Shown: in pieces, positions 1 through 4,538 of the stretch | Position numbering within the stretch: the first letter of the stretch is position 1 | How the letters are laid out: every line of letters starts with the position of its first letter | From: a virus | Lineage: Duplodnaviria > Heunggongvirae > Uroviricota > Caudoviricetes > Autographiviridae | IMG/VR virus record: IMGVR_UViG_2541047861_000003 | Reading direction: 5' to 3' (one strand) | DNA: 4,538 bases | The notes under the pieces: model-generated | Told to the model about the DNA's origin: nothing | Database searches by the model: none | Seen by the model: the letters and a program-made list of their open reading frames with translations, nothing else | Program-made: the position numbers and the translations under genes

Positions 1-98
1 GAGTCTTGAGTCTTGAGTCTTGAGTCTTGAGTCTTGAGTCTTGAGTCTTGAGTCTTGAGTCTTGAGTCTTGAGTCTTGAGTCTTGAGTCTTGAGTCTT
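1..98 (-). repeat. Heptanucleotide VNTR: 14 perfect tandem copies of GAGTCTT (+ strand), i.e. AAGACTC on the coding (-) strand; array is cut by the window start so total copy number is unknown
   Basis: Direct reading: positions 1-98 are exactly 14 x GAGTCTT with no interruption. On the - strand all three frames are open through the array; on the + strand every frame hits TGA (GAG TCT TGA). Confidence 0.98.
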
Positions 99-103
99 AA
101 CAT
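1..103 (-). CDS. neuO: Polysialic acid O-acetyltransferase NeuO, 5' end only (start codon plus repeat-encoded N-terminus); partial, continues beyond window start
   Basis: ATG at 103..101 with AGGA at 114..111 (7-nt spacing). Frame reads ATG TTA then (AAGACTC)n, giving M-L-(RLKTQDS)n. This matches the recalled neuO 5' heptad-repeat architecture of prophage CUS-3. Gene body is not in the window, so identity rests on the repeat signature and genomic context (directly downstream of an endosialidase tailspike). Confidence 0.75.
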   Translation of the reverse strand, partial: MLRLKTQDSRLKTQDSRLKTQDSRLKTQDSRLKT

Positions 104-110
104 ATTAGTA

Positions 111-191
111 TCCTACGTTATTTTACCACTAGTTACTTTTCTTGTCATTAAAAAGCATTTAAATTTTTATATTTAATTTCGTTGACGTCAA
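111..191 (-). promoter_or_regulatory. neuO upstream region: Shine-Dalgarno AGGA (114..111) and candidate sigma70 elements (ATGACA 148..143, 17-bp spacer, TAAAAT 125..120; alternative TTGACG 191..186 with AAAAAT/TAAAAA about 16-17 bp downstream)
   Basis: Hexamer matching by eye on the reverse complement of an AT-rich spacer. The proximal candidate would place the transcript start inside the SD, so the distal candidate may be the real one. No experimental support. Confidence 0.3.
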
Positions 192-256
192 TGTTTTTTG
201 CCAATGTACTTACTTCTTTATGTGATCAGTTCATATTTTTGACGCCAACGAAACAT

Positions 257-3202
257 TTAGTGCTTCCCTTCTATTAAGTCTAACCTAGCTTTTATTCTTT
301 CTATTTCTCTGCGCTGCCATGCTGCCTCGATATAGAATAAGAGATCAGGTCTGACCCCCCATCTAGATCCTGCTGGCGTTATTTCAACGCGCTCAATGAT
401 GTCTTCCATTACCATCACTGGATTATCATCCTCATCAACAATGATGCTCCCGTCATTATCAGTCAGCGGCATTTCCCTTTGGCCAGTAATGACGTCATCA
501 TATACTGCGGGATAATCGTCATAGCAAAGAAAGGCATAGCGGCATGTTGTGCTTTCTTCTTCCATGAGTCCGTGAGAAATAAGAACATCACGAAGTTGCT
601 GCGCGATTACACCATGATGTATCCTCGCCCCTTCTTCCCCCTTTATAGCGACAGCGTTCAGCCATTTATAAGCGATATACCTGACGTCACCCCAGGCATC
701 CAGCAATGTTTCGTCAGGAGAGACCGGCTCTGTCTTTAATGTTCCGTCACTGGTAACCACAGGATTGGAGCCAAGATAAACTATCGAGAACCTGTTTCCC
801 GGACCACCAAGAGCATTTACATTATCAAGATAAGGTTTAACATCTCCGTTCTCAAAAAGATGTTCGAGTGCGTTATATACCGCGCGACGTGGAGTACTGC
901 TTCTGGAACCATGCAACGTTATCATTGCACCATCTGCTGAAGACGTTGTTTCACCGCCGCTAACGATTAATCTCTGAGCGGTAACATCATCAGACGGTAC
1001 TTTCTTCGCAATAATGGCGTAATTACCCTCAAGTTTGACTTCCGCGCGAACTTGTCCTGATGTACCTGCATGGACAGTCAGTGACTGGACGGCAACATCA
1101 TCTGTGAAATCAACGGGTACAGGAACCGTCCTCACGCCTGACGTCGACATAAAAGTAGGAAGCGTTCTGTTAGGAGTGGCTCCGTAGACAAAATCCCTTG
1201 AAACAAATTCTTCCTGTTTAATTTTCACCCTGAAACAATACAAATCAGCCGGGTGACCATCGTGAACATAAGGATATTTTCTGTTGTTATCCCCTATGCT
1301 CCATGGGTTTAGAAAGTCTTCCCCACCGAAAATGTAGTACAGCCAGTTGTCTTTGATACAAACTGAACCAACACCAACCGCAGAGTTAACTATTCCGCCC
1401 TGATAAATCTGATCAGTAACATTAACCCACTCTACATTATCCAGACTCCACTCATTGACGTTAACTCTGGTCATAAATGTTCTTGGATAGTTTCCTGCAT
1501 AACGGTTATCAGGTTCTCCTCCTTCCCACTCACCAAATGCGCGCTCACTGCCAAAAATAATCAGCTCATCGCCAACTTTGGCAAAAGGAAGGTTTGAGTG
1601 ATGAACATTATTTGGGAAGCGAAGAGAATTCCATGATGTACCTAAATCAGAGCTTCTGTGCAATGAACTACCGGGTTGAGTACTTAATGTCCCCCTGGTC
1701 GTCAGATACAGAATGCCATCATAATATTTTACACATGGCTCAGATGCATTCGCCTCATATTCTGCAGGTATGCGTCTGCGAACAAAGCTACCAGGAGAAC
1801 CGAAAGCATCAGAGAAATAGAGTATCCCAAGCTCGCGTGGACCAATATCACCATTATGGTAGCCAACAGCAAAACTGTTATCGCTAATCGTCGCAAAACT
1901 GTGAATCTCAGTAACAGGAGTGCTTCCGTCAACAAAAGAAGGAATAGTTCCAAGACTGGTTTTTCTCCATGGTGACGAGTGAAATGATGTACCAAAACTC
2001 CAGTATCTACCCTCGTTATTCTGATCCACATCCTGGGTATTTTGCGTCGTAACTGTAAAAGTATTTTTATCAATAACAGTAGTCACCGTCATATTCCCGG
2101 TAACACCTGTAACACCAGAGTTTGAGAAGTTGACAAAATCACCAGCAAATAATCCGTGATCAGTAATGCGAATATAAGCGACTTGCTGATTTGCTGCTTT
2201 CGTTATACCACCATAAACGCGAAGGCTGCGACTCATTGGGCGATCCCACAACTCTGCAACCTGCAGTTTATTTCCGCTCACGGTCCGCGTCTCAATTACA
2301 GCAAAAAGGCGATTTCTGACAACCCCCATACTCATGCAGTGATAGTTAACTGTGGGATAGTTTTCATGTAAATCTGTAAGCCATTCCGGCGTTGTCCAGG
2401 TCTTCCCGTCATCTCCTGAGCGAACCCATGCAACATGGAGGTTATTTACACCATGGCGGTCTCCAGCCATAAAAGGCGCATAGATGACATTGTCATATAC
2501 AAACGTTTTATCCTGCGTCCAGGCGTTGTACCACGGTGTATCTGTAATTTTAAATAACTCTCCCTGGATAAAATCTTCAGAAACATAAAAAAGAGGCTGA
2601 CCCGGTATTCTCTCAAATAAAAAACGAGCATTTTTAAATCGACTGACATCTGGAAGAGTTGATACTTTAAAAGTAAGCCCTCGCCCATCTATCTTTTCAC
2701 CACCTGTTGCAACAGAAAGTAATTCTGATAGAGCTGATGTATCATCATGAACACCATCACCAATAGCCCCCCAACCTCTTACATCATAACTGTCTCTCCA
2801 TCTTGCTATCTGAAGTTTTGGGTATTTATTCGCTCCATCTGGGTCTTCTAATTGCTGCCGTAGTTGATCAGGATCATACTTCAGCACATTCTGGAAATAG
2901 AACTGCTGTACGCCATACGCATCGTACACAGCCATAGAATGGCCTTGCACAGTTACGAACTTGGCAATCCGTCCGTTATATACAGGGTAACCAGCAGCGT
3001 TAATGATGATTGGTTGCGAAACAGGAACGTGAGAGCCGTCTTCGTTCTCTACATAAACCTGAATCCGGTTTTCAGGATTTACCGGGTCAGTGTCAATTTT
3101 ACCGATATAAATTTTGCCATTGGCTACGGCTTTAAAAGAACGCGCCATAGTGAAGAGTTGCGAAGGCATCGATACAATCACATTGGCTGTAATGTCTGTC
3201 AT
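257..3202 (-). CDS. Tailspike protein, endo-N-acetylneuraminidase (endosialidase) type, with P22 gp9-like N-terminal head-binding domain and C-terminal intramolecular chaperone domain
   Basis: 981-codon ORF, ATG 3202..3200 with GGAG 8 nt upstream, stop TAA 259..257. N-terminal ~113 aa (MTDITANV...VLKYDPDQ) closely resemble the recalled P22 tailspike N-terminus. Two bacterial-sialidase Asp-box motifs S-x-D-x-G-x-T/S-W are present: SGDDGKTW (aa 262-269, nt 2396..2419) and SSDLGTSW (aa 517-524, nt 1631..1654), both verified against the nucleotide sequence. C-terminal region resembles endosialidase chaperone domains. Confidence 0.92.
260..790 (-). other. Tailspike C-terminal intramolecular chaperone-like domain; predicted autoproteolytic Ser818 (nt 749..751) with Lys823 as partner
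   Basis: Motif [13 protein letters not shown] with Ser and Lys 5 residues apart, followed by ...[10 protein letters not shown]...[13 protein letters not shown]..., resembling the recalled serine-lysine dyad region of endosialidase/tail-fibre chaperone domains. Exact domain boundary is approximate. Confidence 0.55.
2864..3202 (-). other. Tailspike N-terminal head-binding (virion attachment) domain, P22 gp9-like; module junction at the YDPDQ motif (nt about 2864..2881)
   Basis: Similarity to the recalled P22 gp9 N-terminus ends right after ...NVLKYDPDQ; the sequence downstream is unrelated to the P22 receptor-binding domain. Confidence 0.8.
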
Positions 3203-3260
3203 TTAATTTGCTCCAGATGCAAAGAATCGCCGCAGCATGGCCACGGTGAATTTTGGGCAT

Positions 3261-3283
3261 AAAAAAACCCAGCCGAAGCTGGG
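3261..3283 (-). terminator. Rho-independent terminator downstream of ant (between ant and the tailspike gene)
   Basis: On the - strand: CCCAGC-UUCG-GCUGGG (6-bp GC-rich stem, UUCG tetraloop) followed immediately by seven U (+ strand 3261-3267 is AAAAAAA). Lies 19 bp after the ant stop codon. Confidence 0.75.
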
Positions 3284-3302
3284 TCGTTGCGTTGGTTATC
3301 TG

Positions 3303-4205
3303 TCAGTAATTATGTACTGAAGGAGGTAATTCTTTATTCTTAAGTCTCATCCATGCGGAAAGATTCGTTGGTCCGTCTGGCTCATTGATATCAACATCTC
3401 GTGTGTGATTGATTAAAACGTCTCTCGCCATATCGATAATACGGGAGAACTCATAACCGCAGTCATGACATCTGCCGGAATAGTTCGATTGAATTTGTTT
3501 TAGCGCCGGATACAGTTCGCGGAATAATGCCTGTGAGCGGTTGGCATAATCCCATAGCCATACAAGGCTGTTTGCTTCTTTTGCAGAAAGCTCGTTGGTT
3601 TTCTTCTCTTGTTTGCCGATGAACTCACCTTCAAGCACTACCCTGTGGATGTACTCTACTGCTTGTGGTATCTGAGATGCATCAAGCTCTTCAATACTTT
3701 CCACATTGAAACGCTGATGAATCATTGCATAAGCTTCTGGGTACATTAGATGCTTTTTGCTGACTAGCATATTTACAGCATCACGAAGCGGAGTCCTGTC
3801 ATCAACAGATGTTTTCTTCCGTGCATTTGCTGCCTCTCCCTTTGTCCAGTAGTCATGCAGCACAGTAAAGCATTCTTCCTGGTACTGAATCAGTTTATCG
3901 CGGATGTCAGCACGAACTTTCTCAGGGTTGATGCTGAACAGCCATCCATTTAACTTCTTCAAAGGAAGGCAGAGTAGCTTACGAAGCTTACCATCAGCGG
4001 CAACCATGTTCATATGAACACAGTTGAATTTGCTAATCTGCTTCATGAGTTTTGTTTGCTGCGTTGACCAGCTCATTCCGAGGTTTTCAACGATTGGCTT
4101 CATCGCAACATATGCAACTCCGGCAGCCATGGCGGTGATAATTTGCTGACCGTTGAATGGCACGTAAGAGGTGTTCACTGCTTCTAAAATTGCTATACTA
4201 TTCAT
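3303..4205 (-). CDS. ant: Antirepressor Ant (P22 immI-type), 300 aa
   Basis: ORF in the supplied track runs 3303..4271 from a GTG. Preferred start is the internal ATG at 4205..4203 ([21 protein letters not shown]...), with GGAG at 4219..4216, giving 300 aa, which matches my recollection of P22 Ant length and N-terminus. Stop TGA at 3305..3303. Confidence 0.8.
4191..4199 (+). promoter_or_regulatory. Candidate extended -10 promoter (TGcTATACT) on + strand inside the first codons of ant, oriented antisense to ant (Psar-like)
   Basis: TG-n-TATACT at 4191-4199; no good -35, consistent with an extended -10 promoter. Predicted start about 4205-4208, opposite the ant start codon and SD. Confidence 0.35.
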
Positions 4206-4287
4206 GTTGGTTTTTCTCCACGGATTTACCGACAACCGAAGCCCTGACTGTTCCAGCAGTTGGGGCTTCACTGTTTTGATTTCTTTG
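4206..4287 (+). ncRNA. sar: Predicted sar-like small antisense RNA complementary to the ant translation initiation region
   Basis: Candidate promoter at 4191-4199 and a strong terminator-like hairpin 4238-4269 followed by a U-rich tract, delimiting a transcript of roughly 70-80 nt antisense to the ant SD. Matches the recalled arrangement of P22 sar RNA. Prediction only. Confidence 0.4.
4238..4287 (+). terminator. Intrinsic terminator-like hairpin for the antisense (sar-like) transcript
   Basis: + strand RNA GAAGCCCUGACUG-UUCCAG-CAGUUGGGGCUUC forms a 13-bp stem including two G.U wobble pairs, followed by ACUGUUUUGAUUUCUUUG. On the - strand the two wobble pairs become C.A mismatches, so the structure is stronger on the + strand. 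Confidence 0.45.
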
Positions 4288-4443
4288 CCGCATCAAGCAT
4301 CACTTCTGAAAACGTGCGCTTGCCACTGAATACTCTTTCTCTTCTCAATTTTTCGTTCGTGCCAAATGATTCGCCATGAACAAAATTTGGTCTTAAAATG
4401 GTAATCGCAATCTCTTTGACTACTGCATCCAAGCGAATCACAC
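4268..4443 (-). pseudogene. Possible 3' remnant of a gene upstream of ant, truncated by the IS insertion (58 codons open to the IS boundary, no usable start codon)
   Basis: - strand frame reads ...[56 protein letters not shown], with stop TGA 4270..4268 overlapping a GTG (GTGA) in the ant frame. Does not match recalled P22 Arc. An open stretch of this length could also arise by chance (about 6-7 percent expectation). Confidence 0.25.
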
Positions 4444-4538
4444 TGAACCGCCCCGGGAATCCTGGAGACTAAACTTCCTGAGAAAGAGGTAAACAGGATG
4501 ACTAAAAATACTCGTTTTTCCCCCGAAGTCCGTCAACG
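4444..4538 (+). mobile_element. IS3-family insertion sequence (IS629/IS1203/IS3411-like), left terminal region; partial, continues beyond window end
   Basis: Sequence from 4444 begins TGAACCGCCCCGGGAATCCTGGAGAC..., a typical IS3-family terminal inverted repeat starting with TG, followed 54 bp later by an orfA start whose product begins MTKNTRFSPEVRQ, which I recall as the IS629-group OrfA N-terminus. Confidence 0.7.
4498..4538 (+). CDS. IS3-family transposase OrfA, first 13 codons only (partial)
   Basis: ATG at 4498 with GAGG 8 nt upstream; translation MTKNTRFSPEVRQ runs off the window end. Confidence 0.7.
   Translation, partial: MTKNTRFSPEVRQ

Follow-up and report, generated by a model that had tools for sequence, protein, structure and literature searches.

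The stretch of prophage DNA analysed here carries, on the same strand, an endosialidase tailspike gene and, directly downstream of it, the start of neuO, a capsule O-acetyltransferase gene whose start codon is followed by a heptanucleotide repeat. We consider it very probable that the phase-variable neuO cassette, next to the CUS-3 endosialidase gene, provides the lysogen with partial superinfection exclusion. The pairing of tailspike and neuO is real and was correctly interpreted in the original prediction, and it is already known; gene arrangement, switch and protection against phages have all been published, so that the finding raises no new question.

The window, by which we mean the whole stretch of 4,538 nucleotides, is 98.5% identical at the nucleotide level to CUS-3 (CP000711) over positions 1-3635, and positions 99-4443 are 100% identical to the chromosomes of S88, APEC O1, MS7163 and other K1 ExPEC strains. 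The integration region, which in prophages of the CUS-3 type is beside int at the argW tRNA, lies outside the window; in the genomes with these identical flanks, the gene order is yfdC, tRNA-Arg, intS, neuO, tailspike. Besides the near-identical DNA, the CUS-3-type P22-like features present are the head-binding domain, ant and sar, while arc lies beyond an insertion sequence and outside the window. Judged from its sequence, the window belongs to a P22-like prophage (Lederbergvirus) of the CUS-3 type in E. coli K1, of which it covers the end near the integrase, with the following features:

1..98, minus strand: neuO poly-psi array, 14 perfect AAGACTC heptamers, a minimum count as the array reaches the window edge
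1..103, minus strand: 5' part of neuO, which encodes a polysialic acid O-acetyltransferase, with ATG and array
104..142, minus strand: neuO leader, part of the cassette, in which AGGA at 114-111 resembles a Shine-Dalgarno sequence and TAAAAT at 125-120 a -10 element
143..256, minus strand: tailspike-proximal part of the spacer, present with or without neuO
257..3202, minus strand: endosialidase tailspike gene siaK1, assigned from Pfam and PDB matches and from identity to CUS-3 SiaK1
3266..3285, minus strand: intrinsic terminator in the ant/tailspike gap, with a GC-rich stem of 8 bp ahead of a run of T
3303..4205, minus strand: ant antirepressor gene (Pfam P22_AR_N and P22_AR_C), part of the P22-type immI region
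4206..4272, plus strand: sar antisense RNA (Rfam RF00262, scoring 83.9 bits where the gathering cut-off is 43)
4444..4538, plus strand: left end of an insertion sequence of the IS3 family, with the first codon of its transposase at 4498

The siaK1-neuO region of CUS-3 has the same genes in the same order and on the same strand, with the same ATGTT start before the AAGACTC array. The differences concern the number of heptamers (19 in RS218 and at least 14 here, where the array meets the window edge), six amino-acid changes in the head-binding region of the tailspike, and the IS3-family element that is found here at the arc/orf57 junction. Alignment to S88 and to the IS3-family element carried by strain E10 places the insertion, which breaks the prophage, a single codon ahead of the arc stop. 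This junction was absent from 5,426 complete genomes, and the three genomes that seem to span the whole window have the same insertion sequence elsewhere. The same 903-nt ant gene is annotated by PGAP in S88 and in other genomes. In epsilon34, a terminator is annotated at the place equivalent to 3266-3285.

The siaK1 open reading frame (3202-257) is intact and encodes 981 amino acids, as seen from the ORF call and its translation. Its domain organization is as follows (all on the minus strand):

nt 3202-2864: P22-type head-binding domain (Pfam), with Head_binding at aa 1-113
nt 2767-752: catalytic propeller, barrel and stalk (Pfam/PDB), with End_N_terminal at aa 146-212, End_beta_propel at aa 213-662 (E = 1e-233), End_beta_barrel at aa 324-406 and End_tail_spike at aa 663-817 (all Pfam)
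nt 751-260: C-terminal intramolecular chaperone domain, beginning at Ser818, with Peptidase_S74 at aa 818-878 (Pfam)

The complete endosialidase set of propeller, inserted barrel, stalk and chaperone was recovered above cut-offs (PF12217, PF12195, PF12219, PF12218 and PF13884), and PF09008 (E = 4e-64) identified the head-binding domain as P22-type. The crystal structures of endoNF, the endosialidase of phage K1F (1V0E and 3GVL), match the tailspike with E = 0, and the catalytic architecture corresponds to aa 145-817. In contrast, the N-terminal adaptor of endoNF is T7-type, whereas that of the tailspike is the P22 head-binding domain, and the tailspike has a 7-residue insertion at aa 422-428 relative to endoNF. 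The catalytic residues of endoNF are E581, R596 and R647, and its chaperone-release serine is S911. E488, R503, R554 and S818 of the tailspike align with these positions, so that the E/R/R-aligned positions and the chaperone-cleavage serine are conserved. Moreover, 975 of the 981 residues are identical to CUS-3 SiaK1, and the six differences all fall within aa 43-121. The GenBank record of CUS-3 cites direct-assay evidence for the endosialidase activity of this protein, which is 99% identical to the tailspike studied here (PMID 16689790). The aligned catalytic residues and the identity to the CUS-3 endosialidase support polysialic acid as the predicted substrate, as had been proposed, with the activity read across from the 99%-identical CUS-3 enzyme.

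On the other side of a 153-nt spacer, the start codon of neuO (ATG at 103-101) is followed by TT and then by (AAGACTC)n at 98-1, for which Tandem Repeats Finder (TRF) reported 14.0 copies with 100% matches and a score of 196; the same repeat is annotated in the CUS-3 record. The array is translated as MLRLKTQDS(RLKTQDS)n. The window contains no more of neuO than these 103 nt, the acetyltransferase body of ∼650 nt lying beyond its left edge, and the identity of the gene is taken from the genomes that are 100% identical across 99-4443. In those genomes the open reading frame encodes a protein with Pfam Hexapep repeats that matches the NeuO structure 3JQY (E = 1e-160), as expected for a left-handed beta-helix acetyltransferase. 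The open reading frames, the short spacer and the ATG with its heptamer array bear out the claim that neuO lies directly downstream of the tailspike on the same strand, and confirm it as the predicted lysogenic-conversion gene adjoining the tailspike. Because the array runs into position 1, 14 copies is a minimum and the phase state is not readable from the window.

Repeat numbers were compared among 16 related prophage loci, whose AAGACTC counts were 5, 8, 9, 10, 11, 15, 16, 19, 21, 21, 24, 27, 30, 34, 39 and 60. A full NeuO open reading frame (237-356 aa) accompanied each of the nine counts that are divisible by 3, while the seven other loci had none; full-length NeuO is thus predicted for multiples of 3 alone. 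In the repeat-count scan of related prophages, phiv205-1 gave no match to the repeat pattern. The variation among the 16 loci agrees with the range of 3-53 neuO repeats described across 64 genomes (PMC13001214). The earlier statement that NeuO acetylates the polymer recognized by the tailspike and is switched by the repeat is borne out by the literature, and its second part also by the divisible-by-3 rule.

neuO also shows features of a moron, a cargo cassette in a phage genome. A cassette of ∼850 bp comprising neuO is precisely missing from 12 complete genomes as well as from one phage record, and the flanks of these empty slots are 98.6-100% identical to those of neuO-bearing phages. Two different junctions were found, CUS-3 positions 1562-2411 being gone in class B and 1592-2444 in class A. 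In class B neuO-less prophages the leader (104-142) is missing together with neuO, so that the class B boundary of the cassette lies at 142/143. A direct repeat of 11 nt, TTTTATATTTA, is located at 165-175, and its partner overlaps the neuO stop codon. The GC content is 36.1% for the neuO body and 27.5% for the spacer, as compared with 44.2% for the tailspike gene, 43.6% for ant and 47.8% for int. At the sequence level, these clean boundaries and the distinct base composition show that neuO is a cassette.

The spacer also bears on a possible coupling of neuO to its own tailspike, through read-through from the late/tailspike transcript, through tolerance of the acetylated polymer by the CUS-3 endosialidase, or through both. 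The two genes are co-directional, whereas gtrABC and oac of other P22-like phages converge on the tailspike behind an annotated terminator, and an intrinsic terminator was looked for but not detected in the 153-nt spacer, where we found only a long-loop hairpin. On induction, the late/tailspike transcript could thus continue into neuO. However, the cassette has its own Shine-Dalgarno and -10-like elements, and DsdC-dependent transcription of neuO has been reported in lysogens (PMC9659370). Moreover, the catalytic module of the tailspike shares 99.5% nucleotide identity with its counterpart in a phage without neuO, and therefore gives no sign of a special adaptation. We regard such coupling as improbable. 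Its joint form, in which read-through is combined with a CUS-3 endosialidase that copes better with acetylated polymer than the enzymes of competing K1 phages, also seems quite unlikely. If true, the locus would create a phase-variable 'private receptor' that excludes rival phages and not CUS-3 itself. In the literature, we found no tests of CUS-3's own enzyme on acetylated polymer.

The hairpin in the spacer is formed by an inverted repeat at 177-191/239-253 and has a fold z-score of -3.9. It was rejected as a canonical tailspike/neuO terminator, given its 47-nt loop and the lack of a U tract. As it is kept in phages without neuO, it belongs to the tailspike side. Matches to the promoter consensus occur at 148-120 and 191-163, in a window whose total of promoter-like sites is no higher than that of shuffled sequence.

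According to the explanation that we favour, the tailspike would bind and cleave the alpha-2,8 polysialic acid capsule, allowing the virion to get to the cell surface. The neighbouring neuO, an AT-rich and self-contained lysogenic-conversion cassette, would provide a soluble hexapeptide-repeat acetyltransferase that O-acetylates the polymer used by the tailspike. Slipped-strand changes in the number of AAGACTC units at the 5' end of neuO would shift the reading frame and, since the frame depends on the heptamer number, NeuO would be made only at a copy number that is a multiple of three. Capsule acetylation would then be turned ON and OFF in a reversible and stochastic manner by the repeat. 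The acetylated capsule would be a poorer receptor for K1-specific phages, and the prophage would therefore give its host partial, phase-variable superinfection exclusion. We infer that protection takes effect when the endosialidase binds or cleaves its substrate.

Two published studies bear directly on the effect of acetylation. Deletion of neuO led to larger plaques of a K1 phage (∼3.8 versus 1.15 mm) and to complete lysis, and the effect was complemented (PNAS 2022, PMC9659370). In the second study, loss of neuO raised susceptibility to a lytic K1 phage above that of the wild type (93% ON) and of a locked-ON strain, and mass spectrometry confirmed acetylation (J Bacteriol 2026, PMC13001214). 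In both studies O-acetylation thus lowered killing by lytic K1 phages, which the second one terms superinfection exclusion. The proposal that O-acetylation modulates phage susceptibility is therefore supported for lytic K1 phages, in the second study with the locked-ON design that the original prediction had put forward. The published protection is partial and concerns two heterologous lytic phages, not CUS-3 itself (PMC9659370, PMC13001214). When the K1F tailspike was studied by deep mutational scanning, neuO carriage did not account for host discrimination among the strains used (PMC12632334). The literature, excluding King 2007, Deszo 2005 and Kwiatkowski 1983, yielded no adsorption data and no endosialidase kinetics on acetylated polysialic acid; the two studies above give neither adsorption nor enzyme kinetics, and the words 'adsorption' and 'endosialidase' do not occur in the text of the J Bacteriol study (PMC13001214).

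The position of neuO had been likened to that of the conversion genes of P22-type phages. This is true for P22, epsilon34 and Sf6, in which the slot between integrase and tailspike is occupied by gtrABC, gtr and oac, respectively. However, the conversion genes of these three phages are on the opposite strand and converge on the tailspike gene, whereas neuO is co-directional and downstream, and NeuO is not homologous to their products (Hexapep for NeuO, PF01757 for Sf6 Oac). neuO is therefore analogous in function to gtrABC and oac but is not a member of their families. Its closest functional analogue is oac of the P22-like phage Sf6, which lies between tailspike gene 14 and the integrase gene and O-acetylates the polysaccharide that the Sf6 tailspike cleaves. 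The two systems differ in several respects: Sf6 Oac is a membrane protein of the Acyl_transf_3 type acting on the O-antigen, while NeuO is a soluble hexapeptide-repeat enzyme acting on the capsule, and oac is separated from the convergent tailspike gene by a terminator. No repeat feature is annotated at oac in the Sf6 record, and a Pfam scan of Oac gave only the acyltransferase domain. In P22 and epsilon34, gtrABC also modify the receptor of the tailspike from the same slot, although by glucosylation rather than acetylation, and through three membrane-associated Gtr proteins where neuO encodes a single soluble acetyltransferase.

These comparisons raise the question of whether the adjacency is simply positional. 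The integrase-tailspike junction would then be a permissive cargo slot of P22-like phages, neuO would be kept mainly for the gain of the bacterium (evasion of Siglecs and neutrophils, resistance to desiccation), and phage resistance would be a side effect. The slot does hold unrelated cargo in P22, epsilon34 and Sf6, and 12 genomes and a Uetakevirus have the same endosialidase but no neuO. Of the 40 best-matching genomes, at least 9 keep neuO although IS3, ISEc52, IS66 or ISEc12 breaks the tailspike gene or ant. Decaying CUS-3-like prophages that retain neuO have been described in the literature, as have effects of acetylation on macrophages, neutrophils and serum. On the other hand, the phage-protection phenotype was reproducible in two independent studies (PMC9659370, PMC13001214), and in Sf6, P22 and epsilon34 the cargo of the slot likewise modifies the substrate of the phage's own tailspike. 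As this pairing of cargo and substrate recurs across phages, pure chance is unlikely. We hold the positional account to be tenable but rather doubtful, and it is not mutually exclusive with superinfection exclusion. Considering the retention of neuO beside broken tailspikes and its several host-interaction phenotypes, phage exclusion may not be what the gene is mainly selected for.

The boundaries of the cassette and its recurrent loss are small additions to what has been published, and could help to type gain and loss of neuO across K1 lineages. More broadly, the locus ties together a major virulence capsule, its phase-variable modification and phage predation in E. coli strains causing neonatal meningitis and urosepsis, and it bears on K1-phage therapy.

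The minus strand carries all the relevant genes of the window.

Features of the window and of the neuO cassette
4444-4538, plus strand: IS3-family element, left end only (its transposase starts at 4498)
4441-4268, minus strand: 57-aa ORF between arc and ant, without Pfam match
4206-4272, plus strand: P22-type sar antisense RNA opposite the ant start (Rfam RF00262, 83.9 bits)
4205-3303, minus strand: ant antirepressor gene (Pfam P22_AR_N and P22_AR_C)
3285-3266, minus strand: intrinsic terminator between ant and the tailspike ORF
3202-257, minus strand: tailspike ORF, 981 aa
Between the tailspike ORF and the neuO ATG: spacer, 153 nt, 27.5% GC
103-101, minus strand: neuO start ATG, then TT, then the AAGACTC array down to position 1
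Window 104-175, and 1562-2444 in phage CUS-3 (CP000711): cassette region
Empty-slot junction sites: 3500/3501 (record L021), 4560/4561 (record L023), 4580-4590 (record L024)

Unlike the window, P22 has no gene in the arc-ant interval where the 57-aa ORF lies. The IS3-family element is inserted one codon short of the arc stop and splits the arc/Pant side from orf57-ant; a search of 5,426 complete E. coli genomes did not find this exact junction.

The tailspike ORF is intact. Its first 113 residues form a P22 head-binding domain, followed by the full endosialidase domain set (N-terminal extension, beta-propeller, inserted beta-barrel and stalk) and a Peptidase_S74 chaperone domain, all far above the Pfam cut-offs. 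Residues E488, R503 and R554 align with the catalytic positions of endoNF, the phage K1F endosialidase, and S818 with its chaperone-release serine. Residues 145-817 match the endoNF crystal structures (1V0E/3GVL) with E = 0, and 975 of the 981 residues are identical to the CUS-3 tailspike SiaK1, the six changes all falling within residues 43-121. For SiaK1, the GenBank record lists a direct assay as evidence of endo-alpha-sialidase activity. The original prediction that the substrate is polysialic acid is thus supported.

Only the first 103 nt of neuO are in the window. The start and array translate as MLRLKTQDS..., and the array is perfect (100% matches, TRF), its 14.0 copies being a minimum count since it runs into the window edge. 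Many K1 extraintestinal E. coli, among them S88, APEC O1, MS7163 and ATCC 11775, are 100% identical to the window over positions 99-4443, and positions 1-3635 are 98.5% identical to CUS-3. In the matching genomes, the reading frame extends to encode a hexapeptide-repeat acetyltransferase that matches the NeuO structure 3JQY at E = 1e-160, and intS, tRNA-Arg and yfdC follow downstream. The AAGACTC counts at 16 loci of these genomes were 5, 8, 9, 10, 11, 15, 16, 19, 21, 21, 24, 27, 30, 34, 39 and 60, in agreement with the 3-53 repeats reported for 64 genomes (PMC13001214). A full neuO ORF (237-356 aa) was found at all nine loci with a count divisible by three and at none of the seven others. Because the flanks are essentially identical, this pattern is direct sequence evidence of a hypermutable frame switch, as had been proposed for the array.

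The proposal that O-acetylation modulates susceptibility to K1 phages is supported, for lytic K1 phages, by published neuO deletions. Yang et al. 2021 (PMC8653822) had placed neuO between the endosialidase gene and int, and Connolly et al. 2022 (PMC9659370) argued that prophages modify the receptor they themselves use. In the latter study, deletion of neuO in strain CE10 enlarged K1-phage plaques to ~3.8 mm, from 1.15 mm, and led to complete lysis; the deletion was complemented. Working with MS7163, Walker et al. 2026 (PMC13001214) set a neuO deletion strain against the wild type (21 repeats, 93% ON) and a recoded strain locked ON, and used mass spectrometry to confirm acetylation. Loss of neuO increased susceptibility to a lytic K1 phage, a phenomenon that they termed superinfection exclusion. 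This is essentially the experiment suggested with the original prediction. In deep mutational scanning of the K1F tailspike, the host-specific patterns were reportedly not explained by neuO carriage. Our literature search found no adsorption measurements on the effect of O-acetylation, no endosialidase kinetics on acetylated polymer and no test of the virion or enzyme of CUS-3 itself. The observation is real, its interpretation is correct and the hypothesis is sensible but not new: earlier publications cover the arrangement, the switch and the protection against phages.

The parallel drawn with P22-type conversion genes holds for the position. Since gtrABC in P22 and epsilon34 and the O-antigen acetylase gene oac in Sf6 lie between int and the tailspike, their slot is the same as that of neuO, and in all these phages, as at the neuO locus, the cargo modifies the substrate of the tailspike. 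The parallel does not extend to orientation or protein family: gtrABC and oac are convergent with the tailspike gene, whereas neuO is co-directional with it, and Sf6 Oac (Acyl_transf_3) is unrelated to NeuO, a Hexapep enzyme. neuO functions like the P22-type conversion modules but lies outside their protein families. In epsilon34 and Sf6 an annotated terminator separates the conversion gene(s) from the tailspike; no intrinsic terminator was found in the 153-nt spacer between tailspike and neuO.

The spacer also contains an inverted repeat (177-191/239-253; 15-16 bp, 93% complementary, 47-nt loop) beginning 4 nt past the tailspike stop codon, which is conserved in neuO-less phages. The RNA fold of the spacer beats 200 of 200 shuffles (z = -3.9). 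The repeat was rejected as a canonical terminator.

neuO is a discrete presence/absence cassette. In seven genomes (class A), CUS-3 position 1591 is joined to 2445 via a single copy of TTTTATATTTA, an 11-nt direct repeat of which neuO-plus phages have two copies, one at window 165-175 and the other at the stop codon of neuO. In phage vB_EcoP-720R6 and five complete genomes (class B), 1561 is joined directly to 2412 (window 143), with TTG at both edges and flank identities of 99.7% and 98.6-99.0%. As each empty form retains sequence missing from the other, at least one arose by independent deletion of neuO from a neuO-plus ancestor. Class representatives (two genomes and a phage record) are located at the bioA-ybhB site and carry an intact tailspike, 968/981 identical to that of the window, with conserved catalytic residues. 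The GC content of the neuO body (36%, versus 44% for the tailspike) is compatible with a foreign cassette.

The endosialidase module is also found apart from neuO. Window 289-2681 shares 99.5% nucleotide identity with vB_EcoP_ZX5 (MW722083), an epsilon15-like Uetakevirus, where the module is part of a tail protein of 1,039 aa whose N-terminus differs, and is followed by lysis genes, with no neuO beside it. This indicates a very recent exchange of the module between temperate podophage genera. Among the 40 best-matching genomes, at least nine keep neuO with a tailspike broken by insertion sequences of four or more kinds (IS3 family, ISEc52, IS66, ISEc12); the sites differ among genomes, ant is sometimes hit too (FY26, ATCC 11775 and phiv205-1 were among those compared), and FY26 retains neuO with 27 in-frame repeats. 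These disruptions fit the reported decay of CUS-3-like prophages, and could be ordinary prophage decay or reflect selection against an enzyme stripping the host's own capsule. Taken together, the empty slots, the ZX5 module without neuO and the broken tailspikes with neuO show that tailspike and neuO are commonly, though not necessarily, paired.
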